From IMG/VR virus record IMGVR_UViG_3300027798_000005, positions 1 through 32,403 of that record: a stretch of 32,403 nucleotides of DNA. One strand, 5' to 3'. Of the stretch, positions 1 through 32,403 are shown piece after piece. A program made the position numbers and the translations under genes. Below the pieces are notes generated by a model that did no database searches, was not told the DNA's origin, and saw only the letters and a program-made list of their open reading frames with translations. Numbering within the stretch: position 1 is the first letter of the stretch; each line of letters begins with the position of its first letter. Origin of the DNA: a virus.

Positions 1-127
1 CCAGCCGTTTTTTCGTTTCCTAACATTTCAGTAGTAACAACATACATACTATCCACATAGTCGCAATCTACTAAACGCAAAGCAATTTCTAAACTATCTT
101 TATCTTTTAAAACTACTTTAGGATTTA
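1..127. repeat. Terminal direct repeat, exact copy of 32277..32403 (127 nt). Either a circular-assembly overlap or true terminal redundancy.
   Basis: Read directly: the first 127 bases equal the last 127 bases, and an ORF is continuous across the implied junction. Confidence 0.95.
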
Positions 128-398
128 TGCGTTTTAAGGCGTTATTTTTATTTTTGTGTAGTCTTTGTAGTTCAATAGATTTCTTTTGATTTTGACTATC
201 TAAAAACGCTATTGTGTCCCTATATTTAGATATTACTTCTTTATCTATGGAATCATTTTTTACTTTTACTTCTTTGTAGACTAATTTCGGTTGTGAAGTT
301 TCGCAACCTCTAAAAAGCATAAATACTAAAAGTACCACAAAAGCGACAAACCAAATGTTTAATCGCTTAATAAAATTGTATAGGTTAATTTGTTTCAT
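1..398 (-). CDS. 5' part (ATG at 398) of a 189-aa membrane-anchored coiled-coil protein, a spanin candidate. It continues across the circular junction into 32276..32105.
   Basis: Hand translation from ATG 396-398 gives MKQINLYNFIKRLNIWFVAFVVLLVFMLFRGCETSQ... with no stop, and it joins in frame to ...LRLVDCDYVDS of the 32105..32356 ORF. It has an N-terminal hydrophobic anchor followed by Cys and sits at the end of the lysis gene cluster. Confidence 0.6.
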   Translation of the reverse strand, partial: MKQINLYNFIKRLNIWFVAFVVLLVFMLFRGCETSQPKLVYKEVKVKNDSIDKEVISKYRDTIAFLDSQNQKKSIELQRLHKNKNNALKRINPKVVLKDKDSLEIALRLVDCDYVDSMYVVTTEMLGNEKTA

Positions 399-403
399 TT
401 TTT

Positions 404-1240
404 TTATCGTGTTAATGTAAATTCATATTCTAGTCCACTTCTTTTTACATATACTTTCATCCAACAACTCCCCAAATGTTTTGGCATTCCTATTTTTTCA
501 ACAGCCCAACCTTGACCGCTGTCAAACTCCTCTTTATAAGTTCCCGTTTTAACGTGCCATTGTTTCTTAACTTCTACAATCCCTTTAAATTGATTCATTA
601 TGTATCTGTTATGCGTCATTATCCAACCATCGTGAGTATGCCCTGACATTATCACATCAGCATCAGGAAAAATAGAAGCGTGTCTACTAACAGCTAAAGC
701 ACCTTTTGTAATAACTCCGCCCCAATGCCCATGATCATAAGCAATATTACATGGAAAATTAGCAGTGCCACTTTTAAAAGTCAAATTGATATAACCCATA
801 TATGCCCCTAATTGAATATCAGTTTTTGCAATAGTGTTTATTCTTTCAACTAAACGCATTAAGATATTTGTTTCAGCTCTTTCTGAAACACTACTCTCGT
901 GGTTTCCTGTATTGATTTGTAATATATTTTCAGCATACGGAATCATTTTTAAAGCGGTGTCATTAATTACCAAATCTAAATAATCATTTCCGTTGTGTTC
1001 AGGTCTTATAGCGTTCTTTGCTTTTCGTGGATCATACTTCCCCTGCATTAAACAAAGCATATCACCATTAATAATTATTTTAGCATTTCTTTTTTTAGCT
1101 TCGTCGAGGTGTTCAAATAAAAGTTTTCTATTTGCTTTAGGATTGTCAAAATGCCAATCGGAAGTAAGTAAGAATTCGAAAGTTTTATTATTTTCAAAAG
1201 TATATCTATGAAAATTGTGAGCCTTTTTTGTTATTATCAT
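404..1240 (-). CDS. Calcineurin-like metallophosphoesterase
   Basis: The ordered motifs SDWHFD (DxH), NGD (GD), TGNHES (GNHE) and SGHTHDG (GHxH) are present. Confidence 0.8.
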   Translation of the reverse strand: MIITKKAHNFHRYTFENNKTFEFLLTSDWHFDNPKANRKLLFEHLDEAKKRNAKIIINGDMLCLMQGKYDPRKAKNAIRPEHNGNDYLDLVINDTALKMIPYAENILQINTGNHESSVSERAETNILMRLVERINTIAKTDIQLGAYMGYINLTFKSGTANFPCNIAYDHGHWGGVITKGALAVSRHASIFPDADVIMSGHTHDGWIMTHNRYIMNQFKGIVEVKKQWHVKTGTYKEEFDSGQGWAVEKIGMPKHLGSCWMKVYVKRSGLEYEFTLTR

Positions 1241-1334
1241 AATAGTTGGTTAATTATAAGGGATTCAAACCCTTGTCAAATGCTTATGCAAATATGTTAT
1301 CCTTGTCAGTATTTATTCCTGATTACACCAATAA

Positions 1335-1709
1335 TTACCAACGTGCTTTTCTTCCTCTATGGTCGTAATGCGTGAACGTAGGATAAACACCTATTCCTCC
1401 CTCTTTCATTTTACCACTTTCAATAAGTCCTTCAATTACTAAAGCTACTTCTTTAGGTGTCATTCCTTTTACTTTAATATCCGCAGCAGTACCTCTTAAA
1501 TGTTGGCTGTCTTTAACACCGCCTATTTTAGCGTTATACTTTGGACTTCTGTAACCGCTTGTAATTGCAATAGGTTTATTTATTGCGGTTCTTAATATTT
1601 CCAAATTGCGTGCAAGTTCAACAATATTTAAAAGTGCGCTGTTTGGAATATCTCCGCCATCTTTACACTTAAATTCTTCAAGACTAAAATTAGTCGTTAT
1701 TTTTGCCAT
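1335..1709 (-). CDS. Endolysin, peptidase M15 (zinc D-Ala-D-Ala / L-Ala-D-Glu peptidase-like)
   Basis: FSLEEFKCKDGG...ITSGYRSPKYNAKIGGVKDSQHLRGTAADI...THYDHRG matches the M15 family pattern with H/D/H zinc ligands. It lies immediately downstream of the holin. Confidence 0.85.
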   Translation of the reverse strand: MAKITTNFSLEEFKCKDGGDIPNSALLNIVELARNLEILRTAINKPIAITSGYRSPKYNAKIGGVKDSQHLRGTAADIKVKGMTPKEVALVIEGLIESGKMKEGGIGVYPTFTHYDHRGRKARW

Positions 1710-1711
1710 CT

Positions 1712-2146
1712 TTATTTTATTTTATTAATATCTTCTTTTACTTCTTTTGCTCTATTTAATAATTCTTTTAACATTTTCCAAATGTTAATATTTAAAGCTT
1801 CTTCAATATTTTCTTTAATGCTTGTAAGTTCAATTAATATCAAAAGAATCGCCACTAATTTAGTAAACATAAATTGAATAGTAAAATGACTTTGAGTAAA
1901 TTCATTCAATAAAAATTTATCAATTACAAAAAGTAAAATCAAAGTGATTTGATACAACAACATTTTAGACACTATATTCGATAATTTACGAGAACGAATA
2001 GAACGCCACCCATTTAGTTTAACGCTTTTAAATATACCAGTAAAGGTGTCTAAAGCAATACCTAAAGCAACCGCAATAAGCAATCCGTAAATGGGTGTAA
2101 AAAATAAAAATAGTCCAGCTATAAGATAGGTTAAGTAGGTTTTCAT
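1712..2146 (-). CDS. Holin (toxin-secretion/phage-lysis holin family pattern)
   Basis: Multiple hydrophobic helices, an ALDTFTG motif near the N-terminus, ELTSIKEN near the C-terminus and a charged C-terminal tail. Its stop lies 2 nt before the endolysin ATG. Confidence 0.75.
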   Translation of the reverse strand: MKTYLTYLIAGLFLFFTPIYGLLIAVALGIALDTFTGIFKSVKLNGWRSIRSRKLSNIVSKMLLYQITLILLFVIDKFLLNEFTQSHFTIQFMFTKLVAILLILIELTSIKENIEEALNINIWKMLKELLNRAKEVKEDINKIK

Positions 2147-2347
2147 TTATTCTTGTGTTGGAGTGTATTCAATAGTTTCTAATTCCGATAAATCGTGCCA
2201 TATATCATAAAAGCATTCCGCAGTAAGTACATTCATTCCTACTATCCAATTGTCGTTTCCATCTTTGGCAAACTCCAAAACGTTGCCTTTATTTTCGTAG
2301 CCGTTTAAAGCATTGTATTGCTCTTGATTTGCTTTTAGTACTAACAT
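2147..2347 (-). CDS. Hypothetical protein (66 aa)
   Basis: ATG-initiated ORF packed between the RBP-like gene and the holin with 1-nt spacers. Confidence 0.5.
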   Translation of the reverse strand: MLVLKANQEQYNALNGYENKGNVLEFAKDGNDNWIVGMNVLTAECFYDIWHDLSELETIEYTPTQE

Positions 2348-2348
2348 G

Positions 2349-3206
2349 TTATAAAGAGTTTAAATAAGTGTTAACAGCTGTTATAATATCTGAATTTTCA
2401 GATACCATACTTGCGCCATTCATATAGAAAGATATCGTGTGCGCTCCGTAAGAAGTACCACTTCTTAAAATTAATTGATTTGAGGATGTCATTGTAACTG
2501 ATAAAGCAGTTCTGCTCGCTTGCGTAGTTCCGTTAAATAATTCAACATTTGTAACGCTTGTACGATGTATAGACTTCATTCCCTTTGTAGCTGTAAAATC
2601 AAAAGAACCACCTGTTAAACCTAATGATTGATTAATACGCTGATTTACCGAAGAAGTACGAGACATATTATTTATACCTGCTAAACTACGCCCATCCAAA
2701 GCACCTGTACCGCTTGCAGTGTCCATAAATAAAAATCTACTCGCATTATTTTGCGTATAATTAACTCCATCTGTAACAGGATTGAAGTTAGTGTCTATGT
2801 AAGAGCTACTTCCATTACCTTGAAAACCTTTTCCACTTATAAAAGTTGGAGCATTAAATAAAGTTGCTGTATGTGTAAAATTTTTCCAATCAATACGAGC
2901 GAAGTCAGAATTTGAAGTAGTAGCAAAAAGATATAAGCAATCTATTTTACTCCAAGCACCAGCGTTTTTTAAATCAATAACTAACTGATTTTGTTTTAAC
3001 TTTTCATCATCACTTGGTAAAGTAAAACCTAATTCAGTACCTCTATTTAAAATAGATTGATAATCTGCATCATAAGCAAAACCAACTATATTAGTATCGC
3101 CTGCCCAACTATTAGCGTGAACAGAACCCCAACTTATATCGTTGTTAACTGCACCTTGACCCCAACCTATATTATTATTTTTCGCTCCTTGTCCCCAATC
3201 GCTCAT
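2349..3206 (-). CDS. Putative tail fibre / receptor-binding protein
   Basis: N-terminal Trp-Gly repeats (DWGQGAKNNNIGWGQGAVNNDISWGS..SWAGD) are followed by a Ser/Thr/Asn/Gly-rich beta-type domain. It is the last structural gene before the lysis genes. Confidence 0.4.
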   Translation of the reverse strand: MSDWGQGAKNNNIGWGQGAVNNDISWGSVHANSWAGDTNIVGFAYDADYQSILNRGTELGFTLPSDDEKLKQNQLVIDLKNAGAWSKIDCLYLFATTSNSDFARIDWKNFTHTATLFNAPTFISGKGFQGNGSSSYIDTNFNPVTDGVNYTQNNASRFLFMDTASGTGALDGRSLAGINNMSRTSSVNQRINQSLGLTGGSFDFTATKGMKSIHRTSVTNVELFNGTTQASRTALSVTMTSSNQLILRSGTSYGAHTISFYMNGASMVSENSDIITAVNTYLNSL

Positions 3207-3280
3207 TTTGTACTTTTTTTAATTGTTCAACTTTTGCTAAATATAAATTTAGCTTTTTAAAATTTTCGATTTTTGGTTTC

Positions 3281-3793
3281 TTATAATTGCCAGCCACCAT
3301 AAAAATTATTTGTATCAGGATTTACATCCTCATTATTATTGCTATTATATTCAGGATATGTAGATTGATTAAAACACATAAAATCTATAAATCTTTGCGT
3401 GTAACTTTCTGCAATATCCCTTTCCTTTTCTACCAAGTAATCAACTTCTGCTTTATCTACGTTTGTAGCGTTTTCGCTTGTATGTTTAAACAAACCTTTA
3501 TTACTTAATGTATATGCTGCAAATGGTAAATAATAAACCATAGCCCAATGAATAAGCATAGGCTTAACGTAAGTTGTTAAAAGTGTTTTATACTCTGAAA
3601 ATTCAGGCTCGTTTATATCATCATTTAAAATTAAATCCTGTAACTTTTTATATAATTGCGAACCTAAATAATTTTGAATAGTAATGTCCTGACTAATTTT
3701 TATGTATTCGATAAAATCGTCAGCATCTAAATTGCCGTTAGTTATCGTAAATTTCTTTACGTCTTCTGTTGATATAAGTAATGCGTATGCCAT
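3281..3793 (-). CDS. Hypothetical virion protein, possibly a head-tail connector
   Basis: 170-aa ORF directly downstream of the portal gene. Function is inferred from position only. Confidence 0.35.
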   Translation of the reverse strand: MAYALLISTEDVKKFTITNGNLDADDFIEYIKISQDITIQNYLGSQLYKKLQDLILNDDINEPEFSEYKTLLTTYVKPMLIHWAMVYYLPFAAYTLSNKGLFKHTSENATNVDKAEVDYLVEKERDIAESYTQRFIDFMCFNQSTYPEYNSNNNEDVNPDTNNFYGGWQL

Positions 3794-3800
3794 AGTTTAA

Positions 3801-5600
3801 TTATTTAGGTAAAAAGCCTTTATTAGGCATATCAATAGGTCTTTGAGAAACTAATTCAGGATTTTTTATAACGTATCCGTATTGCTCGGCTTTACGCCCT
3901 GCAATTTGTTTAGCTTTTGGTGAATTAACATCTATGTTTACATTTTCAAAACTTGCATAAACTTGTTTATTCCATCTATGATGGCAAGCTCCCCCGCCTT
4001 TATAAAACCATACATTTACTAAAGGACTTCCGTTAGGTCCAAAACCTTTTTTCTCTCCTTTAGAATTAGTTCTAACCTCGTTTACTTCTTTATTTGACAT
4101 TGCTATAATATCTTCTTTACGATATATTTTACCAGCGTCAATCATTTTTTGGCAAAACTTTCTACTTTTTAAAGTTGTTTCACCTGCGTAAACATATCGA
4201 GTTATAAAACGGACTCCGTCAATAGTTTCATCTTGTTCACTTTTTGAGTTTCCTCTTGCAGTACCGGTACTTACTAAATTGATTATTTTAGATAATAAAC
4301 TTTGATTTGATTCTTTAGATAACAATTCATTTTCTGCATCGTCATTATCGTAATCAACTTCGCTTTCGTCTATTAAAAGCCATTTATCATTTGGTGTTTC
4401 ACCTAAAGAAATTAAAGCATCTGCAACTGAATCATCTGAACTATTTTCACTTAAACAACAAGTATGAGCTGAAAGTTGCGTTCCTGTTTCTTCTGCTACT
4501 TGTTCAGAAGTTTGTGCATTCTCTAAATCGGTAAACTCTAAAGGCTGAATCGTTTTAAAGTATAATTTTAACTTAATATTATTAACTGATAAAATAGTAT
4601 CTAACGCTTCAATGATTTCAATCTGATAAGGTTTGATTACTAAATTATCATAAAGTAAAGTCGCTGTTTTAATTTCGTCTGCATTGTTAGAAAATCCACC
4701 TCCTGAATCACGAACTCCTAAAAGCATTGGTGAAGTAACTCTATGCCCTACAACTAATTTTTCAAAACATTCTTTAGCTAAATATTCATAATGTTGCGGT
4801 GCATCGTTTAATGGTATATCAGTTACTTCCGTTGCATTTTCTTTGCTACTATTAAAAGACACTATTACTTTTTGCCCTTTAGAACCTGTTAATTTACGTT
4901 TTACATCAGCTGAAATTTCTTCTCTTTTTTCTTCAGGCGGTATATTGTTATTAAAGTTTACAACTTTAGTACCACTAAAACCATTCATTACATCATTAAT
5001 CAAATAGTCTGAAATTTCTTCTTCTAACTTTGCATAAGGTAACGCACCCGAATAATCAATCGGAGTATAATAATGGTAACCGCTTACATAAGGTCTTACA
5101 ACATAAAGTTCAACATCTTTTTTATTACCAAAACCAAAAGCAGGAATACGTTTAACCTCATCACTCGGTTTTTTCTTTGCCCAATCAGGATGATAATACC
5201 ACGCTTCAATCTCTCCTTTATCGTTGCATTTTTCAGCTCTTAAAGTATGCATTGGAAAATGCTCTATAAATTTTACTTCGCCCTTTTCGTAAACAACTTG
5301 CATAGCAGCCATTCCTAAAAGTTTTCGTTCTAAAGCAACTTTCTTTAATGCGTTTGGCTTTATTATAGAAATCATTTTAGCGTACTCATCAGGCTTTTTA
5401 TTAGCGTCTAAAGCACTAATACCTTTCCCGTAAATCATATTACTACAACCTGTAATAATAGCGTTATTTGTGGTGCTATATAAATACCTATCAATTAAAA
5501 ACTGAAAGTAGTTGTTATCAGCTCCATATTCCACAAAATCACCTTTTTTACTTTCGTTAATTTGTGGACTTGTATAAGCACTTAAATTTAATACATACAT
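3801..5600 (-). CDS. Portal protein with a C-terminal MuF / SPP1 gp7-like minor head domain
   Basis: 599-aa ORF, the largest head-module gene. An acidic linker is followed by SRKFCQKMIDAGKIY...GGGACHHRW, which resembles the Cys/His signature of MuF-type head morphogenesis proteins. Recognition is from memory. Confidence 0.55.
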   Translation of the reverse strand: MYVLNLSAYTSPQINESKKGDFVEYGADNNYFQFLIDRYLYSTTNNAIITGCSNMIYGKGISALDANKKPDEYAKMISIIKPNALKKVALERKLLGMAAMQVVYEKGEVKFIEHFPMHTLRAEKCNDKGEIEAWYYHPDWAKKKPSDEVKRIPAFGFGNKKDVELYVVRPYVSGYHYYTPIDYSGALPYAKLEEEISDYLINDVMNGFSGTKVVNFNNNIPPEEKREEISADVKRKLTGSKGQKVIVSFNSSKENATEVTDIPLNDAPQHYEYLAKECFEKLVVGHRVTSPMLLGVRDSGGGFSNNADEIKTATLLYDNLVIKPYQIEIIEALDTILSVNNIKLKLYFKTIQPLEFTDLENAQTSEQVAEETGTQLSAHTCCLSENSSDDSVADALISLGETPNDKWLLIDESEVDYDNDDAENELLSKESNQSLLSKIINLVSTGTARGNSKSEQDETIDGVRFITRYVYAGETTLKSRKFCQKMIDAGKIYRKEDIIAMSNKEVNEVRTNSKGEKKGFGPNGSPLVNVWFYKGGGACHHRWNKQVYASFENVNIDVNSPKAKQIAGRKAEQYGYVIKNPELVSQRPIDMPNKGFLPK

Positions 5601-8177: not shown

Positions 8178-8546
8178 TTATAAAGATTTACCTATTCCGT
8201 CAACTGAATTAAATAATTTTTTATAATCAGCCGCTTTGCCTTGTAAGTCTTTTTTATAACTTTCAAAACCTGTATCTCCCAAACCTAATTCTTTAGCTTT
8301 TGTTTCTAATTGATTAATTAAATCCACAGCATTTTGAGCGTTTTGATAAGCTACTCTGATATTATCGGAATAAGTGATAAGCATATCTTTAGCTTTGTTT
8401 TTAGCCTTGTCTACATTATCTTTTAAACCTTTATATTTTTGAATTTCAGATTTGATGTCATCTGTTAAAGCTAAATCTACTTTATGCGTTCCCAATTCCG
8501 TTTTAGGGAATAATTTACTAAATACTTGTTTTTCTTGTGGTGTCAT
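8178..8546 (-). CDS. Hypothetical head-module protein, tandem paralogue 1
   Basis: It shares MTPQEKQVFSKLFPKTEL.. and the ..KAKELG.. core with 8567..8920. The first 53 nt are identical at the DNA level. Confidence 0.6.
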   Translation of the reverse strand: MTPQEKQVFSKLFPKTELGTHKVDLALTDDIKSEIQKYKGLKDNVDKAKNKAKDMLITYSDNIRVAYQNAQNAVDLINQLETKAKELGLGDTGFESYKKDLQGKAADYKKLFNSVDGIGKSL

Positions 8547-8566: not shown

Positions 8567-8920
8567 TTAGAACTCCGCTACTCTATCAATAGCATCGCTT
8601 GTCATTTGCCAAGCCTTATTGATTTCATTATAGTTTGGTATTGCATTTGGATTTATACCTAACTCTTTTGCTTTTGCTTCAATATTATTAATCAACTTCA
8701 TTTGTGTATTTAAAACGCTTTTAGCACTATTGCTTTCTGTTTGCATTGCTTTATAAGACGTTTCATAGTTAGTAATTGATTTTTTTACCGATTCAGTAGC
8801 TGCTTGTAAAAGAGTAGTTCCTGCTTTTAAGTCATCAGCTAAAGCCAAATCTACTTTGTGAGATGCTAATTCCGTTTTAGGGAATAATTTACTAAATACT
8901 TGTTTTTCTTGTGGTGTCAT
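8567..8920 (-). CDS. Hypothetical head-module protein, tandem paralogue 2
   Basis: See 8178..8546. The 53-nt 5' identity spans 8868-8920 and 8494-8546. Confidence 0.6.
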   Translation of the reverse strand: MTPQEKQVFSKLFPKTELASHKVDLALADDLKAGTTLLQAATESVKKSITNYETSYKAMQTESNSAKSVLNTQMKLINNIEAKAKELGINPNAIPNYNEINKAWQMTSDAIDRVAEF

Positions 8921-11946: not shown

Positions 11947-14193
11947 TTAAGCATTTTGTATAATTGGTATTTCGATGTCGTTTATTGTTCCTGTTTCGTC
12001 TTGCCACTTTCCAGTAATATATCCTATCCTTTCAGCTCCTGTTGTGTTTTGTGATATATCCACTCGTATTGTTGTGTCATTATCGTAATCAGTAGCTATG
12101 TAATCAATCCACCCATAAAGCGACGCTTGTAATGATATTACAGGACTTACATTACGCAATAATAAAACTTCAATAGTTTGCTCCGTATTATCAACTTCAT
12201 AAAAAGGTTCAAAAGCAAATCTGTTTCCAATCGGAACTTCGCCACTTCGATAGTCCGTAAGCAATTCTAAAGTAGTTTCGCCACTTGTTAAATCAGTTGT
12301 TAGCTTGTTTATAGTATATCTTTTATCTCTTATTATAATTCTGTCATTTAATTTAATATCAATTAACTGAACAGGATTAAAATAGCATTTTACAATAACT
12401 AATCTACTTTTGATATTGAAGATATTACCTAAATAATTTTCGTAGTGTCGTTTGTAAAGTCCGTTTGAAACGTTTGATAAAAACCACGTGCTTATTTCTT
12501 CTCCCCAATTTAAAGTAAGAATAGTTCCGTTGTCGTAATCATTTGAGAATCTTCTGTATTGAGTTATAATTTGATGACCGCCCGTAAGTAAATCAATTCT
12601 AATAGTTGGACTTACCGTTTGCGTTCCGTTATCGTACATCAATAATGGTTTTGGTACGTAATTATTTAGATCACTCTTTTTAAAAGTAAGTGTTTGAAAG
12701 TTACTATTTGATTTACGTTCATACATTGCATTTTCAAAAGGTAACTCTACGCTGAAAGTTGAACTCTCTAAACTATCAATTTGCTCATAAGACAAATCCC
12801 CATAAGAGAAGTTTCGAGTCGACAAAAACAATTCATCAAATTTAGTATTTAATATATTTTCAGATTTTTGGTATTTGAAATTTATATTTTTATACATTGA
12901 TGTTTTCTTTAACTCAATTTCATCTGATATTACATTTGCACTTATATCATTATAACGCCCATCGTTGTAATATAATTCTAAAGGTATTAACTCGTAAGTT
13001 GTTTCATCTTGCGGAATAATTACAAGGTTAAACATTTTGATAAGTCCCGTAATTAAATCAATTAGTTTTAAGTCAGGTGCATAAGATCCAATGTCGATAG
13101 TTGCTCCTATTGTTTGACTTGTACCACTTGCTGTATAACTTACTGCACTACTTCCTATTCCACGAGTATAAGTTAATAAACTTGTAAAAGAAAAACCCGC
13201 TTGCCCTTGAATCGCTAAAGTAAATTTGTCAGTTACGTTTTGAGTAGTTAAAACGTGACTAATAAACAAGTCATTACTATTACCTATAACACCCGCATAA
13301 GTTCCGTGTAACGCTCCATTCTTATAAATTAATATATCATAAGGCTGAGTGCTTGCGGTTGTAATTTGAAGTCTTACTTGTCTAAATCCTGTACCTTGAA
13401 AACCTATTTCATCAGTAGTCAAATTTACTTCCGTATCTGTTAAAGCAGGATTTTTAGAAGTAAAATTCACTTTTAAAGGTGTTAACTTTTGGCTAAAACT
13501 TTCAGTGTTTTTAAACAACATCCATAACTTACTGAATTGCGGATAATCTAAAAAAGCACCCGTAAAATTCAAGTCGTAAGTGTCCGAAATTTTATCTAAA
13601 ATAAAAGACAAAGGAATTGCAGGAAATAAACTATTCCATTTTATAGACCCCGCATTAATTGTAATGTCATTACTTCCGCCTGTATTGTAATCATATATTC
13701 TATCATTCGCAAATAACGGATAAGATACATTACCCGTTGATGTTGTAATTCTGCTAATTACTTCCGTACTTGTATAAGTGTGATTTAAACTACTAAAATC
13801 TAAATTTGCTAACTTATCCTCTTTTAAAATATCTTTTATGTTTTTAGCCTTACCATAAAATACAATTGAATAAGCGTCTAACATTCCGTTTTTATACTTC
13901 ACATCGTTTAACGCAAATGCACCCTCTCTAAAAGTACGTGTATCAATTTCAATATATCCGTTGTATTTTACTCTATGGTCAAAACCACCATCTATACTAC
14001 TTTCGTACCAATGTTTAAATATTTCGTTATTAATTGTACTTGCTGGAATAGTGAAACTTTGTGTAAAATCTGTTTTAGCTTTTGATACGTCAGAAATATC
14101 TTGAACAGATGAAGTTACTGAAATCTTTTCATCTTCAAATAATTCAATGCGTTTCGATATTCCATCAACTTTTATATAAAGTGCTACTATCAT
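11947..14193 (-). CDS. Large tail / baseplate structural protein
   Basis: 748-aa beta-rich ORF translationally coupled (ATGA overlap) to the preceding tail gene. Its N-terminus resembles distal-tail/hub-type proteins. Function is inferred from position. Confidence 0.45.
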   Translation of the reverse strand: MIVALYIKVDGISKRIELFEDEKISVTSSVQDISDVSKAKTDFTQSFTIPASTINNEIFKHWYESSIDGGFDHRVKYNGYIEIDTRTFREGAFALNDVKYKNGMLDAYSIVFYGKAKNIKDILKEDKLANLDFSSLNHTYTSTEVISRITTSTGNVSYPLFANDRIYDYNTGGSNDITINAGSIKWNSLFPAIPLSFILDKISDTYDLNFTGAFLDYPQFSKLWMLFKNTESFSQKLTPLKVNFTSKNPALTDTEVNLTTDEIGFQGTGFRQVRLQITTASTQPYDILIYKNGALHGTYAGVIGNSNDLFISHVLTTQNVTDKFTLAIQGQAGFSFTSLLTYTRGIGSSAVSYTASGTSQTIGATIDIGSYAPDLKLIDLITGLIKMFNLVIIPQDETTYELIPLELYYNDGRYNDISANVISDEIELKKTSMYKNINFKYQKSENILNTKFDELFLSTRNFSYGDLSYEQIDSLESSTFSVELPFENAMYERKSNSNFQTLTFKKSDLNNYVPKPLLMYDNGTQTVSPTIRIDLLTGGHQIITQYRRFSNDYDNGTILTLNWGEEISTWFLSNVSNGLYKRHYENYLGNIFNIKSRLVIVKCYFNPVQLIDIKLNDRIIIRDKRYTINKLTTDLTSGETTLELLTDYRSGEVPIGNRFAFEPFYEVDNTEQTIEVLLLRNVSPVISLQASLYGWIDYIATDYDNDTTIRVDISQNTTGAERIGYITGKWQDETGTINDIEIPIIQNA

Positions 14194-25831: not shown

Positions 25832-26500
25832 TTAAAATAATTCAATTTGTTTACTTTCTTTTTTATTTATAATTCCTAAAGCGGTTTCAAAAATAGTTCT
25901 TCCAGCTTCATAGTCTACCAGGTTACGAGCCATTTTTAAAATTAGCTGTTTGCCTTTATATTTTCTAAAATCGTAATCGTGAAAATCGCATAAATCTTGT
26001 AACCTTGATGCTTGTACTAATGAAGTATCGTTTCTATTACTCAATATATTTGGAAATTTAAAGTTACTCCAATATGTATGCCTATCTTTTTGTATAGGAT
26101 TAAACATAGGCTCATAATATGGATTCACATTTTCAACAACCCATTTACCAAAAAAATGATATTTTAAAAAAATAACCTCTTCATAGAGTTTCATATCTGG
26201 ATAAACAGGTTTTAAACCATTTTTTCCAAAACCCCAATATCTTGCCTTACTATGGCTCGGACAAGGTGGCGAACTCCAAATAAAATCAAACTCTTTGTAA
26301 TGGTCAAGTAAATATTTGTGTGCATCTGCAACTATTACTTTATCATTTGGAAATCGTTCTTGATACAATTGAGCTGCTACCTCATCTAATTCAACAGCAA
26401 TCACTTCAATTTCTATTCCTGCTTGTTTTGCAACTTCATCCCATTTATATCTATTACCACCTAAACAGGCATATAAGTTCAATATTTTATATTTTTCCAT
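25832..26500 (-). CDS. DNA (cytosine-5) methyltransferase, unusually short (222 aa)
   Basis: Motif I LYACLGGN, motif IV SSPPCPSHS (catalytic PC) and motif VI VVENV are present. Confidence 0.7.
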   Translation of the reverse strand: MEKYKILNLYACLGGNRYKWDEVAKQAGIEIEVIAVELDEVAAQLYQERFPNDKVIVADAHKYLLDHYKEFDFIWSSPPCPSHSKARYWGFGKNGLKPVYPDMKLYEEVIFLKYHFFGKWVVENVNPYYEPMFNPIQKDRHTYWSNFKFPNILSNRNDTSLVQASRLQDLCDFHDYDFRKYKGKQLILKMARNLVDYEAGRTIFETALGIINKKESKQIELF

Positions 26501-27417: not shown

Positions 27418-27572
27418 CTTTTCAAATCGTATTTAATTACTTCTTTTAGTTTCGGGTCTGTATTATTTGCCACTTCAATAGCTTTCAATCTGCTATCTTT
27501 TTGGATTTCGTAAGCGGTCGGTATTCTTTTACCTACTGCAACTATTGTTTTACGTTTGGATAATTTTCCCAT
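27414..27572 (-). CDS. Possible small basic ORF (52 aa)
   Basis: Hand-translated as MGKLSKRKTIVAVGKRIPTAYEIQKDSRLKAIEVANNTDPKLKEVIKYDLKR. It fills the 132-nt gap, and its stop overlaps the MTase start as ATGA. Confidence 0.4.
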   Translation of the reverse strand: MGKLSKRKTIVAVGKRIPTAYEIQKDSRLKAIEVANNTDPKLKEVIKYDLKR

Positions 27573-28071
27573 ATTCTTTAAAATCTTCGTATGTCCATTT
27601 TGTATAAACTTTATCGTTTAAATAAGTTCGTTTTTTTCTTAAATTAATTGCCACTTCTAAAATGTGAGGTTTTTTAATTTTTGGCTTTATTTCATCTATT
27701 TTATTTTTACTTATTGTTACAATATTAGGTTTTGATAATCTTTTTACCTTTACTCTTGATGCATTGTAATCGTTAATTTCTTTGATTTTTGCTTCTAAAA
27801 ACTCATTTGATTTTTGAAGTAAAGACTTATCTTTATTTTGATAGCATTCTGAAATTAATTTGAAATAAATATCATCTTTATAACTATTGTAAGTTCTTAA
27901 AATATAAAATACACTGCTCCTATCTTTTTTAATATTTTTAGCTATTTCTACAATACTCATAGTTTCAATGTTTTCTTTTGCATAAATAGCTCTTAAATAA
28001 ATAAATAATTTATCACGTTTATTTGTTGTTATGTCTATTCCGTAAAATTCTTTAATTTCAAATGGTGTCAT
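27550..28071 (-). CDS. HTH protein resembling DnaA domain IV
   Basis: MSIVEIAKNIKKDRSSVFYILRTYNS resembles the DnaA C-terminal DNA-binding helix-turn-helix pattern. Confidence 0.35.
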   Translation of the reverse strand: MTPFEIKEFYGIDITTNKRDKLFIYLRAIYAKENIETMSIVEIAKNIKKDRSSVFYILRTYNSYKDDIYFKLISECYQNKDKSLLQKSNEFLEAKIKEINDYNASRVKVKRLSKPNIVTISKNKIDEIKPKIKKPHILEVAINLRKKRTYLNDKVYTKWTYEDFKEYGKIIQT

Positions 28072-28807: not shown

Positions 28808-28947
28808 ATCTCTCTAATTTTTACAAATGGGTTATTGTGTCTAAATCTTGCAAATGCTTCATCAAAAGATGCAGCTTCGATTATCTTTTCGCAATCTATA
28901 CAATCGTCGTTTTTGTGACGCCAGTAATATATTTTAAATTTTTTCAT
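28792..28947 (-). CDS. Possible small ORF (51 aa)
   Basis: Hand-translated as MKKFKIYYWRHKNDDCIDCEKIIEAASFDEAFARFRHNNPFVKIREICELN. It fills an otherwise 220-nt gap. Confidence 0.4.
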   Translation of the reverse strand: MKKFKIYYWRHKNDDCIDCEKIIEAASFDEAFARFRHNNPFVKIREICELN

Positions 28948-29152
28948 AATTAAATAAATTATCTACGTATTCAATAGTTGTTGGTTCTCCTGTTGTTTCT
29001 TGCATTAAAAAGATAACGCTTTCAAATTTTAAGTTAGTCCAAGCGACCTCACTTTTCAATTCGCATATTAATTTTTTAGCTGTAAATCTGTAAGGGCAAG
29101 ATTTAAGTTTTGTTCTATTTTCCTTGCTTAATTTTTTCCAAAGTGTTTTCAT
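28934..29152 (-). CDS. Hypothetical early protein, tandem paralogue
   Basis: It shares MKTLW..LSKEN and ..WTNL.. with 29154..29375. Confidence 0.55.
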   Translation of the reverse strand: MKTLWKKLSKENRTKLKSCPYRFTAKKLICELKSEVAWTNLKFESVIFLMQETTGEPTTIEYVDNLFNYEKI

Positions 29153-29153
29153 G

Positions 29154-29375
29154 TTATTTGTTGTAAAAAAGTCCGTATAAAAGTGTTATAAAATCTTTAT
29201 CGTAAGCAGTTAAATCGTGAAGCATCGTATTTGAAGTTGATACTGTTAAATTAGTCCAGCCATAATTGTTTTTTAATTCTTCAATAATATTTTCATATAT
29301 TGAAGGATATTCTTTTTGATTTTCTAATAGTCTTAATTGATTTTCTTTTGATAATCGTTCCCAAAGTGTTTTCAT
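29154..29375 (-). CDS. Hypothetical early protein, tandem paralogue
   Basis: See 28934..29152. The two genes are separated by a 1-nt spacer. Confidence 0.55.
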   Translation of the reverse strand: MKTLWERLSKENQLRLLENQKEYPSIYENIIEELKNNYGWTNLTVSTSNTMLHDLTAYDKDFITLLYGLFYNK

Positions 29376-29585: not shown

Positions 29586-29605
29586 CATAAATAAAATTAT
29601 AACAT

Positions 29606-29830
29606 ATGAAAAAAACAGCAGTAGAATGGTTAGTTGAGGAAATGTTAAAGCAAGGATATTTTGATGGTAATAAGCCATTAACATATACAAACTTAGATCA
29701 TTTACAACAACAAGTCAAAGAAATGGAAAAGCAACAGATTGTAGATGCTTATCAACAAGGCTACAATAATGCTTATTTTGCTAATCCATTAAATAAAGAA
29801 CAGTATTACAATGAAACTTTTAACAAATAA
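29606..29830 (+). CDS. Hypothetical protein (74 aa)
   Basis: First ATG ORF downstream of the rightward promoter. Confidence 0.55.
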   Translation: MKKTAVEWLVEEMLKQGYFDGNKPLTYTNLDHLQQQVKEMEKQQIVDAYQQGYNNAYFANPLNKEQYYNETFNK

Positions 29831-29833
29831 AAA

Positions 29834-30043
29834 ATGAACATTTTACAAAAATTAATTTCAGAAACCGCAAAGAATAATAACACCTTTGCTAAAATGGTAG
29901 GAGTAACTCCTTCAAAATTATCGTTACAGATTAAAAGTAAAAATCCAATGACTCCAGCTATTACATACGCTAAATTATTAAAAGTAAAATTAGAGTTTGA
30001 AGAAAATGGCTGTAAAGTTGAATTAGATTATAGTAAAGATTAA
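29834..30043 (+). CDS. Small HTH (Cro-like) protein
   Basis: TFAKMVGVTPSKLSLQIK is an HTH-like segment. Its stop TAA lies inside the TTAAC box of element E1. Confidence 0.4.
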   Translation: MNILQKLISETAKNNNTFAKMVGVTPSKLSLQIKSKNPMTPAITYAKLLKVKLEFEENGCKVELDYSKD

Positions 30044-30178
30044 CGTTTGTGGCTTTGTCGTCGTTGTGGCGATTTAAGACCAAACTTAACAAATAATAAC
30101 TAAATTATAAAATTATGACTGAACTTTCAAAAAATACCCAAGTGCCACAATGCGACAAAACCGCTGTTATGCACAGTA
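30038..30178 (+). repeat. Structured cassette-boundary element E1 (attC-like imperfect inverted repeat)
   Basis: The left arm GATTAAC-GTTT-GTGG-C-TTTGTCG-TCG-TTGTGGC (30038-30070) pairs with the right arm GCCACAA-TG-CGACAAA-A-CCGC-T-GTTATGCACAGTA (30144-30178), with a 73-nt loop between them. Confidence 0.8.
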
Positions 30179-30579
30179 TTTTACTTAAATATCTTCCCTA
30201 TGGTGTTTATTTTAATTGCCAATATGGTAGATTAAAACTTATTGGATATAATGGGAGATTTATTTTTGAAAATGGTGATTCTGCGAAAAATATAATTGAT
30301 TTAGGATATGTTCCTGAATTAAAGAACATAAATGATTTTCTTGTTCAGCAACAATTAAGTAAATTTTCAAGATATATTTTAGGAAAAAGAGAAGATTTAT
30401 ATTTCCACAAAATAACTTGGAAAAAAGGGAAAAATGGCTCATTAACTATAAAAATACCAAATAGAGATACAGGAGGTCATTTACAAATTACAACTTTTTT
30501 AGGTTATAATAAGAATATGACAGCAGAACATTATAATTGGTTTTTAGAAAATCATTATGATATATACGGAGTTCTATAA
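30115..30579 (+). CDS. Hypothetical protein (154 aa, or 136 aa from the ATG at 30169)
   Basis: The first 18 codons overlap the right arm of E1. An in-frame ATG lies inside the GTTATGC box. Confidence 0.55.
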   Translation: MTELSKNTQVPQCDKTAVMHSILLKYLPYGVYFNCQYGRLKLIGYNGRFIFENGDSAKNIIDLGYVPELKNINDFLVQQQLSKFSRYILGKREDLYFHKITWKKGKNGSLTIKIPNRDTGGHLQITTFLGYNKNMTAEHYNWFLENHYDIYGVL

Positions 30580-30725
30580 TATTGTGCATAACGTTTTGTG
30601 GCTTTGCGTTCGTTGGGGATTTCCAGCACTAAAGCCGATTGATAGTACAAATTTTAATTTAAGCAGAAATGATTATAGATAGCACTAAAGCCCCAATGAC
30701 GCAAAACCACTGTTATACGCAGCCC
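30580..30725 (+). repeat. Structured cassette-boundary element E2
   Basis: The left arm TATTGTGCATAAC-GTTTT-GTGG-C-TTTGCGT-TCG-TTGGGG (30580-30618) pairs with the right arm CCCCAA-TG-ACGCAAA-A-CCAC-T-GTTATACGCAGCCC (30691-30725), with a 72-nt loop. Confidence 0.85.
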
Positions 30726-31328
30726 TTTTCGGAAGTTTATAATGAAGATTGTATTGAAATAATGAAACGATATGAAGATAATTACTTTGATATTGCAATA
30801 GTTGACCCACCATACGGAATTGATATAAATTCAAGTGGCACACATTTTAAAGAAAAATACGAAATAAAAGAATGGGATAAAGCAACACCAAATGACGAGT
30901 ATTTTAAAGAACTAAAAAGAGTATCAAAAAATCAAATAATTTGGGGCGGTAACTATTTTTTAGACAGATTAGGAAATTGCAAATGTTTTATTATTTGGGA
31001 TAAAAAAATAGCTGAAGATATGAGTTTTGCAATGTGTGAAATGGCTTGGACTTCATTTAAAAATGGAGCAAAGATTTACAATAAAACTGCAACACAACTA
31101 AATAGAATACACCCGACACAAAAACCAATAGGACTTTATGATTGGTTAATTGATAGATATGCAGAAAAAGGGCAAATTATATTAGATACTCATTTAGGTT
31201 CTGGGTCAAGCAGAATTTCGGCAAATAAAGCTGGTTTATCATTTGTTGGTTGCGAAATTGATAAAGACTATTTCAATGCACAAGAAAAAAGATACAAAGA
31301 ATTTATTTCACAGACGAGGCTCTTTTAG
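30669..31328 (+). CDS. N6-adenine DNA methyltransferase (Dam-like, beta class)
   Basis: Motif IV IVDPPYGI precedes motif I ILDTHLGSGSSRISA. Both possible starts (30669 and 30696) lie inside element E2. Confidence 0.85.
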   Translation: MIIDSTKAPMTQNHCYTQPFSEVYNEDCIEIMKRYEDNYFDIAIVDPPYGIDINSSGTHFKEKYEIKEWDKATPNDEYFKELKRVSKNQIIWGGNYFLDRLGNCKCFIIWDKKIAEDMSFAMCEMAWTSFKNGAKIYNKTATQLNRIHPTQKPIGLYDWLIDRYAEKGQIILDTHLGSGSSRISANKAGLSFVGCEIDKDYFNAQEKRYKEFISQTRLF

Positions 31329-31473
31329 GGTTGCGTATAACGTTTTGACGCTTGGCGATGTGGCAAAAAAAGTACACCCGAATTGTCGAATTATTACTGG
31401 TGCATAAGGTACAAAACCAATTATAAATTAAGCCAGATGTTGCCATATTGCCAAACGGCTGTTATGCAATCGG
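31328..31473 (+). repeat. Structured cassette-boundary element E3
   Basis: The left arm GGGTTGCGTATAAC-GTTTT-GACG-C-TTGGCGATGTGGCA (31328-31365) pairs with the right arm TGCCATATTGCCAA-A-CGGC-T-GTTATGCAATCGG (31441-31473), with a 75-nt loop. Confidence 0.85.
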
Positions 31474-31491
31474 TTTTTAAAATTATGAATT

Positions 31492-31680
31492 ATGAAAAAA
31501 TACGAATACAGAATGATTGATTATGATATGTTTGATGAAGATATGTCAAGAGAAATTGAAGGTCTAACTTCTCGTGGTTGGAAAATTATAAGAATATTAG
31601 AACCTATGAAATGGGTAAATAGCGAAGGAATGTTTATTAGAATATTTTATCAACGTAAACGTTCTGAAACTGTTGCATAA
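31492..31680 (+). CDS. Small protein resembling DUF4177 (62 aa)
   Basis: The YEYRMIDYDMF....LTSRGWKIIRILEP pattern. The ORF lies wholly between the E3 right box and the E4 left box, and its stop TAA is inside GCATAAC. Confidence 0.5.
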   Translation: MKKYEYRMIDYDMFDEDMSREIEGLTSRGWKIIRILEPMKWVNSEGMFIRIFYQRKRSETVA

Positions 31681-31681
31681 C
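31669..31681 (+). repeat. Half element E4 (left outer box only)
   Basis: GTTGCATAAC (31672-31681, within ACTGTTGCATAAC) is complementary to the E3 right box GTTATGCAAT. No matching inner arm or right box was found downstream. Confidence 0.6.
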
Positions 31682-31715
31682 TTGTTGCTAACCTCAATAA
31701 AAGTATTACTTATCT

Positions 31716-31904
31716 ATGTCAAAGCCTATTAAATATACAAAAAGTAAAGTTATTAAGCTAACAGAAGTTCAATATAACACTTTAAAAAAGTTAGAGAATT
31801 ATAACATTAGAGTTTGCGACTTTGTAAGAGATGCAATTGCTGAAAAATTAGAGCGTGATAAACACGAAATATTAAAACCAAAGGCAGATTATTGCCCTTT
31901 TTAA
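31716..31904 (+). CDS. Ribbon-helix-helix (CopG/Arc-like) protein
   Basis: KVIKLTEVQYNTLKKLE...FVRDAIAEKLER shows a strand-helix-helix pattern. Confidence 0.45.
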   Translation: MSKPIKYTKSKVIKLTEVQYNTLKKLENYNIRVCDFVRDAIAEKLERDKHEILKPKADYCPF

Positions 31905-31918
31905 AAATAAAAATTAAG

Positions 31919-32110
31919 ATGGAACCAAAATTAAAAGCAAAAGAGTTGTTTGATAAATACGTAGAATTAAGTGGTATTTTTGTAGGAGATTATGAAAGTG
32001 AAAAAGAAATGTGCTTAATTTTAGTTGATGAAATGTTAAATGAATTTTATACGCACCCTATAGCAAAAATATATTGGCAAGAAGTTAAAAACGAAATCAA
32101 TAAACTATAA
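31919..32110 (+). CDS. Hypothetical protein (63 aa from the first ATG)
   Basis: The track start at 31892 is a TTG. The ATG at 31919 gives MEPKLKAKELF... Confidence 0.45.
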   Translation: MEPKLKAKELFDKYVELSGIFVGDYESEKEMCLILVDEMLNEFYTHPIAKIYWQEVKNEINKL

Positions 32111-32403
32111 AGCACTACCAACAACTAAACCAAACACCACAGCAAAAGGCACAGCGTATTTAAGTGATTTACTTATGCGCTGTTGCTTTTTTATATATCG
32201 CTCCTGTTCTTTTGCAAGTTCAATTAAATTATTCTCTTTTACTTCAAATTGTCCTATAATACTATCTTTAAAAATACCAGCCGTTTTTTCGTTTCCTAAC
32301 ATTTCAGTAGTAACAACATACATACTATCCACATAGTCGCAATCTACTAAACGCAAAGCAATTTCTAAACTATCTTTATCTTTTAAAACTACTTTAGGAT
32401 TTA
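32105..32403 (-). CDS. 3' part of the junction-spanning 189-aa membrane-anchored coiled-coil protein (spanin candidate)
   Basis: The ORF is open to the window end and continues from 398..1. It has a C-terminal hydrophobic helix YAVPFAVVFGLVVGSAL. The M at 32356 in the track is an internal TTG. Confidence 0.6.
   Translation of the reverse strand, partial: NPKVVLKDKDSLEIALRLVDCDYVDSMYVVTTEMLGNEKTAGIFKDSIIGQFEVKENNLIELAKEQERYIKKQQRISKSLKYAVPFAVVFGLVVGSAL
32277..32403. repeat. Terminal direct repeat, exact copy of 1..127
   Basis: Read directly. Confidence 0.95.

Follow-up and report, generated by a model that had tools for sequence, protein, structure and literature searches.

attC-like hairpins that probably bound mobile gene cassettes in a Bacteroidota phage belong to a large site family linked to a tyrosine recombinase

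Introduction

Gene cassettes bounded by attC sites occur in phages as well as in integrons: a screen of 10,705 phage genomes with IntegronFinder 2 and with HattCI plus Infernal yielded 17 clusters of attC sites lacking an integron integrase (CALINs), some of them in virulent phages (Qi et al., 2023; PMC9892861). [quoted passage not shown] IntegronFinder surveys find almost no complete integrons in Bacteroidetes (PMC9024848). Here we analyse a stretch of viral DNA, IMG/VR virus record IMGVR_UViG_3300027798_000005 (32,403 nt; hereafter 'the window'), in which three hairpin elements, E1, E2 and E3, separate accessory genes on the plus strand. A first-pass annotation, made from the letters of the window, had likened E1-E3 to integron attC sites. 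Phage CALINs with methyltransferase cassettes have been known since 2023; the array in the window belongs to a family that departs from classical integrons in the details of the sites, in the orientation of cassettes in phages and in the type of recombinase to which such arrays are linked.

Results

Three hairpins share a conserved, strand-specific fold

E1-E3 are imperfect hairpins of ~125 nt:

30042..30168, plus strand: E1 hairpin, AAC to GTT; model E 6e-17; the start codon of open reading frame (ORF) 30115 lies in the loop.
30590..30714, plus strand: E2 hairpin, AAC to GTT; model E 4e-17; fold z-score -3.0; the candidate methyltransferase starts 30669 and 30696 lie inside.
31339..31463, plus strand: E3 hairpin, AAC to GTT; model E 2e-14.

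The positions of the triplets (E1, AAC 30042-30044 and GTT 30166-30168; E2, AAC 30590-30592 and GTT 30712-30714; E3, AAC 31339-31341 and GTT 31461-31463) confirm the AAC-to-GTT distance of 122-124 nt given in the first-pass annotation. The pattern AACGTTT-N(105-125)-CTGTTAT matches the window three times, each time on the plus strand, with 0.01 matches expected from shuffles. Folded as single-stranded DNA, the plus strands of E1-E3 form a closing ATAAC/GTTAT box, an internal loop of 4-5 nt vs. 1 nt, a 4-bp stem and, inward of that stem, a C.A mismatch followed by a longer inner stem; folding thus reproduces the asymmetric bulge and the C.A mismatch that had been seen in each copy by eye. The described hairpin does not form on the minus strand of E3.

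We aligned 17 distinct elements, namely E1-E3 and 14 homologues from other phages. The resulting consensus has 17 pairs, 11 of which show compensatory double changes, so that the compensatory stem changes noted earlier among the three window copies are borne out in the larger set. AAC and GTT are invariant in all 17 elements. The 5' boxes of the window read GATTAAC, GCATAAC and GTATAAC and the 3' boxes GTTATGC, GTTATAC and GTTATGC; set against the integron R-box rule RYYYAAC / GTTRRRY, the AAC/GTT part is invariant and agreement in the degenerate RYYY part is partial. From the alignment we made a covariance model, R1, which retrieves exactly E1-E3 from the window, all on the plus strand (next best E = 0.67), and agrees with the pattern search that nothing like these elements occurs elsewhere in the genome, as the annotation had stated. 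Members of the R1 family have variable loops and are ~74 to 204 nt long. An Rfam scan of the whole window gives no family match at gathering score.

Folding of both strands upholds the plus-strand hairpin as DNA but yields little bias between strands: the transcribed strand gives the better fold for 32 of 43 elements with DNA parameters and for 20 of 43, i.e. no preference, with RNA parameters. This folding-energy preference, weak as DNA and absent as RNA, is left out of our arguments. We conclude that the folded element is real, structurally conserved and strand-specific.

Outer boxes pair across genes and delimit three cassettes

Two features absent from the first-pass annotation define the units of the array. 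The outer boxes pair across genes, not inside one element: the bases after the GTT of one site are the reverse complement of the bases before the AAC of the next. In addition, there is a fourth site without a hairpin, the half-site TTGCATAAC, which runs up to 31681, right where ORF 31492..31680 stops. The cassettes delimited by these R' and R'' boxes are:

30045..30592, plus strand: cassette A; E1 inner hairpin, R' GTTATGCACAGTATTTTA (30166-30183), ORF 30115..30579, R'' TATAATATTGTGCATAAC (30575-30592).
30593..31341, plus strand: cassette B; E2 inner hairpin, R' GTTATACGCAGCCC (30712-30725), ORF 30669..31328, R'' GGGTTGCGTATAAC (31328-31341).
31342..31681, plus strand: cassette C; E3 inner hairpin, R' GTTATGCAATCGG, ORF 31492..31680 (62 aa), R'' AACTGTTGCATAAC (31668-31681).

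The boxes of cassette A, GTTATGCACAGTATTTTA and TATAATATTGTGCATAAC, are complementary at 16 of 18 positions; the ORF between them encodes 154 aa with no family match. The boxes of cassette B, GTTATACGCAGCCC and GGGTTGCGTATAAC, match at 9 of 10 positions, with a G/T wobble at position 8, and enclose an ORF for an N6/N4 DNA methyltransferase (PF01555, E 6e-16). In cassette C, GTTATGCAA of E3 pairs with TTGCATAAC at 31673-31681. The window holds no partner box upstream for the R'' of E1, and the array therefore begins at E1.

The same signature is found outside the window. For 27 distinct pairs of neighbouring phage sites the 10-nt match averages 8.3/10, as compared with 3.9 for the box of the same element and 4.1 for background; for 152 pairs from other loci it is 7.35 vs. 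4.06. The mismatch that recurs in those 152 pairs lies at position 8, with G after GTT opposite T before AAC (90 cases), and is a fixed T.G wobble on the modelled strand. As read from this complementarity, each cassette carries both halves of its own site, which would be joined when the cassette is a circle, the hallmark of integron cassettes.

Phage filifjonk9-1 has a cassette (L005, reverse strand, 3430-3830) whose ends match those of cassette C at every position (20/20 and 14/14 nt) around an unrelated ORF. Cassette C (31455-31700) and this filifjonk counterpart have an R'/R'' match of just 7/10, unlike most cassettes.

Cassettes move and are replaced at the AAC

Movement of a single unit is visible between the phages lillamy9-1 and lillamy9-3, which have equal genome length and differ by the relocation of one 439-bp segment, found mid-array in one phage and beside the hairpin-less terminal site in the other (lillamy9-3). 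The moved unit consists of inner hairpin, GTTAT.., ORF and ..ATAAC, with the R'' box included, and the three junctions have just (T)ATAAC in common (5-7 nt common with the target). A transposon with terminal inverted repeats, made up of an ORF and its R'/R'' boxes, was considered and rejected, because the moved unit includes the inner hairpin. The phages mumin6-1 and filifjonk9-1 are 99.6-99.9% identical and have whole-cassette differences, and one 103-nt hairpin has the same methyltransferase downstream of it in four settings that differ in the upstream cassette. The hairpin travels with the downstream ORF, not with the ORF whose stop precedes it. The elements do follow stop codons, as the first-pass annotation had it in placing them 3' of ORFs, but the observed crossover assigns each hairpin to the ORF downstream.

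Replacement of whole arrays is visible among close relatives of the window in IMG/VR, in which the protein of gene 27550..28071 is 76-98% identical. The backbone around the array is defined by two features:

29834..30044, plus strand: backbone gene, 69 aa; forms the left edge of the array, its stop codon overlapping the first AAC; conserved in loci L249 and L251.
31682..31705, plus strand: terminal junction, at which the backbone restarts (TTGTTGCTAACCTCAATAAAAG...) with no hairpin; L251 restarts at the same point.

The cassettes of the window sit between the stop of gene 29834..30043 and the backbone sequence TTGTTGCTAACC, in the layout ..TAAC, cassettes, TTGTYGCTAACC.... L251 aligns with the window up to 30047, in agreement with the left boundary of cassette A, and again from 31673. 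The space between these two backbone points is taken up by two other hairpin-plus-ORF units in L251 and by a third cassette set in L249. In both L249 and L251 the homologue of the backbone gene is followed by its own ..TAAC and then by a hairpin and cassette that differ from those of the window, and in L251 the backbone restart after the other cassettes reads ..CTCAAC directly followed by TTGTCGCTAACCTCAATAAAAG. Judged from these alignments, the replaced segment runs exactly from window 30044/45 to 31681/82. The moved lillamy9-3 cassette landed at the site equivalent to the hairpin-less 31681/82 junction, which is the presumed insertion point, in an attI-like position. Because the lillamy junctions and the window/L251 backbone breaks fall at the AAC of the 5' hairpin foot on the plus strand, we place the crossover there; the exact nucleotide cut inside ATAAC is one that we infer.

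Elements of chimeric make-up were also seen (L005, reverse strand, 3305-3443, element 6; L251, reverse strand, ~12944-13070, first element); their left and right arms belong to different hairpin types and pair poorly. Their make-up suggests recombination or deletion inside elements.

The sites belong to a large family in Bacteroidota and their phages

A site with 91% identity to E1 over 138 nt occurs in 23 records of Flavobacterium phages from the Baltic Sea (genus Lillamyvirus), and one with 72% identity in five Muminvirus snusmum records. Against cultured phages the phage backbone gives no megablast match and E2 alone no nucleotide match, and there are few shared proteins. R1 detects 9 to 14 elements per Lillamy or Mumin phage region, each on the transcribed strand, although no Flavobacterium phage stands in the lists of the CALIN survey (PMC9892861).

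A 23-base pattern of the family matches at least 120 stretches in IMG/VR and at least 120 stretches in one-genome-per-species bacterial assemblies, nearly all from Bacteroidota among the matches listed (Flavobacterium, Chryseobacterium, Pedobacter, Chitinophagaceae, Bacteroidales and others). Loci were examined as 8-kb stretches around pattern matches. The arrays that R1 finds contain as many as 12 elements per 8 kb; at least two elements occur in 63 of 124 loci, and no locus has them on both strands. Among the bacterial assemblies is that of Flavobacterium sp. LMO8, which served as a host strain in the Baltic phage study and has two elements (L179, NZ_WIBJ01000019.1, 897-1777). Pattern matches labelled as Proteobacteria (L156, Pseudidiomarina fusca; L160, an uncultured gammaproteobacterial metagenome-assembled genome (MAG); L181, a Proteobacteria MAG) all lie on short contigs and may reflect contamination, mis-binning or true spread beyond Bacteroidota.

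The family is distinct from described attC sites at the profile level, since R1 detects none of the 16 canonical attC sites of a Vibrio anguillarum record (best E 0.24). R1 likewise gives no significant match on P12002L, the loops of which are much shorter; read by eye, P12002L_attC1 has the architecture of E1-E3, on the transcribed strand, together with the cassette signature, and P12002L attC2 covers the hairpin-less terminal junction. A full-text literature search returned no account of the site family or of its link to an Xer-like recombinase, an absence that does not prove novelty. The family is very large and, it seems, uncatalogued.

Related arrays are linked to a tyrosine recombinase

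No recombinase is encoded in the window, as the first-pass annotation had also concluded: a Pfam search of 20 window proteins, including all array ORFs and setting aside the larger structural and replication ORFs, yields no recombinase, transposase or HUH protein, and tblastn of the window with the recombinase described below yields no homologue. None was found in the isolate phage regions (two whole genomes, six array regions) or in the parts of close relatives that were covered.

The commonest neighbouring protein of related arrays is a tyrosine recombinase with the domains PF00589 and PF13495, which we take to be the two Pfam domains of IntI as well. Its best NCBIfam match is NF040815, 'site-specific tyrosine recombinase/integron integrase', with two members above cut-off; against TIGR02249 (integron integrase) it scores 114-232 bits, with a cut-off of 265 and the match in two pieces. 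It is about equally like XerA (4A8E, E 3e-33) and IntI4 (2A3V, E 7e-32). It has a C-terminal tail in common with IntI4, and some members, e.g. those of L169 and L183, have an extra N-terminal region of ~120 aa.

The recombinase gene lies downstream of the last element in 20 of the 21 loci that encode one, in 14 of those in the same direction; nine of these recombinase loci are viral contigs. In five viral contigs the terminal junction just upstream of the recombinase gene carries the motif AAC-TAYTATAT (junction at the hyphen), which is absent from the window junction.

Ten Polaribacter Freya phage isolates encode a homologue of the array-linked recombinase. What varies among these isolates is a stretch of small genes, 0 to ~4.1 kb long, immediately upstream of the recombinase (L260, Freya_10, 1-4147, vs. 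L261/L262, Freya_1), and this variable block ends in ..TTGTTGCTAAC, followed by ACCCC. R1 finds no sites in the block, in which a different type of site may be involved.

Phage cassettes are inverted relative to bacterial cassettes

Orientation was scored by the longest ORF lying between each two elements. Of 119 cassettes from bacterial loci, 102 have this ORF antisense to the modelled strand, whereas all 81 phage cassettes have it in sense (70 in seven isolate loci and the window; 11 in viral contigs). Along the modelled strand, bacterial arrays run from cassettes (antisense) through the terminal site to the recombinase (sense), which is the classical integron layout read along the bottom strand. 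The bottom strand of the aadA7 site reads 5'-..CTAAC GCTTGA.. (PMC9892861) and resembles 5'-..ATAAC GTTTT.. of the window elements. The plus strand of the window corresponds to the integron 'bottom' strand and its ORFs are sense; phage cassettes are therefore inverted with respect to classical ones and are transcribed towards the insertion end. The ORFs that follow E1 and E2 have usable start codons only within the loop or right arm, so that the cassette brings its own A-rich initiation region.

Four loci from bacterial assemblies, L163 (Flavobacterium caseinilyticum), L231, L221 and L150, have phage-type ORF orientation together with low G+C and may represent prophages, or phage contigs that were binned with genomes.

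Setting of the array in the phage genome

The first and last 127 nt of the window (positions 1-127 and 32277-32403) are identical, and by this overlap the window is a whole circular or circularly permuted phage genome of ~32.3 kb. One minus-strand gene crosses the end-to-end junction. The genes form one set on the minus strand and a short plus-strand block from ~29600 to 32110. The host group of the phage is Bacteroidota.

Outside the array, a C5 cytosine methyltransferase gene at 25832-26500 (minus strand) has no adjoining hairpin; its protein is 63% identical to that of a hairpin-bounded methyltransferase cassette of phage hemulen6-1 (L002, 4142-4888). Two pairs of adjacent paralogous small genes lie on the minus strand: 8178-8546 and 8567-8920, with the common N-terminus MTPQEKQVFSKLFPKTEL, and 28934-29152 and 29154-29375, which both begin MKTLW(K/E)(K/R)LSKEN. 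A small ribbon-helix-helix-like gene after the terminal site, which by eye seemed common to the window and Lillamyvirus, was dropped because BLASTP showed no similarity.

Discussion

Taken together, the cassette signature, the translocation in lillamy phages, the replacement in relatives and the linked tyrosine recombinase support the attC-like reading of the first-pass annotation: it is quite probable that E1-E3 and the half-site at 31681 are attC-type, structure-specific recombination sites bounding three mobile cassettes. Provided that the sites are attC-type, the array is of CALIN type, with three sites and a half-site within 1.7 kb, on the plus strand, and no recombinase. A complete integron has an adjacent intI with the I2 insertion; the window has no recombinase, and the linked enzyme has no such insertion.

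Several observations weigh against this assignment. Catalysis on the window phage is unproven, as the phage encodes no recombinase. The linked recombinase, judged by its alignment, lacks the IntI-specific insertion of ~40 residues: its residues 298-316 align to IntI4 180-241, 18 residues where IntI4 has 61. Published work credits this insertion, the I2 alpha-helix, with having shifted integron integrases from double-strand towards single-strand DNA recombination (PMC7790495). The P12002L attC1 site, which by eye resembles E1-E3, gave no verified recombinants with IntI1, and the classical extrahelical bases (G, T) of the R''-L'' arm (the 3' arm), which govern strand choice, are not evident in the present family. 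The single-sequence fold z-scores of E1-E3 are modest, only -1 to -3, and several window relatives show no element at the array locus. Finally, the window and Lillamyvirus share the inner part of E1 at 91% identity but differ in both flanks and in the downstream ORF, so that crossover at the left AAC alone is insufficient. The sharing of E1, the ends of cassette C and the chimeric elements suggest either that exchange also takes place on the GTT side or within elements, or that cassettes are formed on a common site template.

The first-pass annotation had kept a role in RNA as a real alternative. The hairpins might act just at the RNA level in a polycistronic early transcript, by RNase III-type processing, stabilisation or translational control, with the DNA patterns as by-products; the position of phage elements on the transcribed strand in every phage cassette, the start codons within A-rich loops, the conserved G.T (G.U) wobble on that strand and the better folding of most elements on it with DNA parameters would all fit such a role. 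However, bacterial elements are for the most part antisense to the cassette ORF, the conserved wobble joins sequences that flank an entire ORF, and an RNA-only function accounts neither for junctions of movement and replacement at AAC nor for a tyrosine recombinase linked to the arrays; the strand preference disappears with RNA parameters, and Rfam offers no matching family. An exclusively RNA-level function is accordingly weakened, by the antisense bacterial cassettes in particular, and we consider it highly unlikely; a secondary role of the hairpins in phage mRNA is possible.

Two further explanations keep exchange at the level of DNA and dispense with a tyrosine recombinase. Elements that were mere linkers, giving unrelated phages short stretches of homology through which general homologous recombination swaps genes, would explain why E1 is so similar across otherwise unrelated phages, why the ends of cassette C recur around a different ORF in filifjonk9-1 and why chimeric hairpins exist (L005 element 6 and the first L251 element). 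However, the relocated lillamy9-3 cassette shares only 5-7 nt with its target, linkers need no covarying hairpin, fixed wobble or cross-gene R'/R'' complementarity, and nothing in this explanation accounts for the recombinase's polarity with respect to the arrays; we regard the explanation as very improbable. Single-strand 'peel and paste' by an HUH (IS200/IS605-type) transposase that recognises the hairpins and inserts 3' of ATAAC would be in keeping with strand-specific hairpins and with insertion 3' of a fixed pentanucleotide that the right end of the element also bears. Against it, the scanned window ORFs include no HUH transposase, the recurrent neighbours of arrays include a tyrosine recombinase instead of one, each unit has a single hairpin rather than subterminal hairpins at both ends, and the ends of a unit pair with each other, as in integron cassettes; we regard it as extremely unlikely.

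According to the hypothesis that E1-E3 are attC-type sites, the single-stranded plus strand would fold into the hairpin, and a tyrosine recombinase would bind the AAC/GTT box and inner stem and cut at or directly after the 5' AAC, corresponding to the cut between AA and C in the classical attC bottom strand, for which the top-strand equivalent lies between G and TT. Two cuts would free a circle of hairpin, ORF and R'' box, in which the cassette's own R'' and R' would form an outer stem of 10-18 bp with the fixed T.G wobble, and the circle would insert again at another AAC, preferentially at the terminal junction. The A-rich loop would supply the translation start of the downstream ORF to the polycistronic early transcript. 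The enzyme would most likely be an Xer/IntI-like tyrosine recombinase that comes either from the host chromosome or from a phage, co-infecting or resident, with a complete system.

A wider proposal, which we advance tentatively, is that the sites represent a separate, Bacteroidota-wide integron lineage largely missed by standard tools, in which an Xer-like enzyme without the I2 helix uses the T.G wobble and the C.A mismatch, not extrahelical bases, and of which phages hold an inverted cassette pool (hairpin 5', start in the loop) that is shuffled in lytic growth, changing, for example, anti-restriction methyltransferases. Virulent phages of Flavobacteriia would then have modular, site-specific gain, loss and reordering of accessory genes. 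Most identifiable cassette genes are DNA methyltransferases, which would counter host restriction. In Baltic Flavobacterium phages the presence or absence of one methyltransferase has been linked to plating efficiency on a second host (PMC7077304), and cassette swapping would be a mechanism behind such host-range differences. A large attC-like family with a recombinase without the insertion would make the origin of integron recombination testable in a second lineage, and integrons in Bacteroidota may be under-counted. Identical cassette ends around unrelated ORFs are relevant to how cassettes arise.

Comparison with known systems

The array has its closest likenesses in integrons and CALINs. 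As in attC sites, each element folds into an imperfect hairpin, in which an outer AAC...GTT box is followed inwards by an unpaired spacer, an inner box and a loop that varies; there is one site per cassette, and arrays are confined to one strand. As in integrons, the R' of one site matches the R'' of the next, and crossover falls at AAC on the strand that has AAC at the 5' foot; in the bacterial relatives the recombinase stands at the insertion end and the ORFs are antisense to the cut strand. With the CALIN of P12002L the array shares methyltransferase cassettes and residence in a virulent phage of Flavobacteriia.

The differences from attC sites lie in the spacer, the specificity features and the ORF. 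The spacer of the present family is strongly asymmetric (4-6 nt vs. 1-2 nt), with the extra bases on the 5' arm; in place of extrahelical bases the family has the C.A mismatch and, at position 8 of an outer stem of 10-18 bp, the fixed T.G wobble; and in phages the ORF is on the cut strand, with its start in the loop. The linked recombinase stands at about equal similarity to IntI (VchIntIA/IntI4, PDB 2A3V) and to XerA (PDB 4A8E), with the IntI insertion missing.

A more distant parallel, which may serve as a lead only, is offered by CTX-type filamentous phages, which carry a folded, single-stranded attP that is recombined by host XerCD. There, as might be the case for the window phage, a hairpin of phage DNA is the substrate of a host Xer-type recombinase that the phage does not encode; in the CTX case the whole phage integrates at dif, whereas here arrays of gene cassettes are exchanged.

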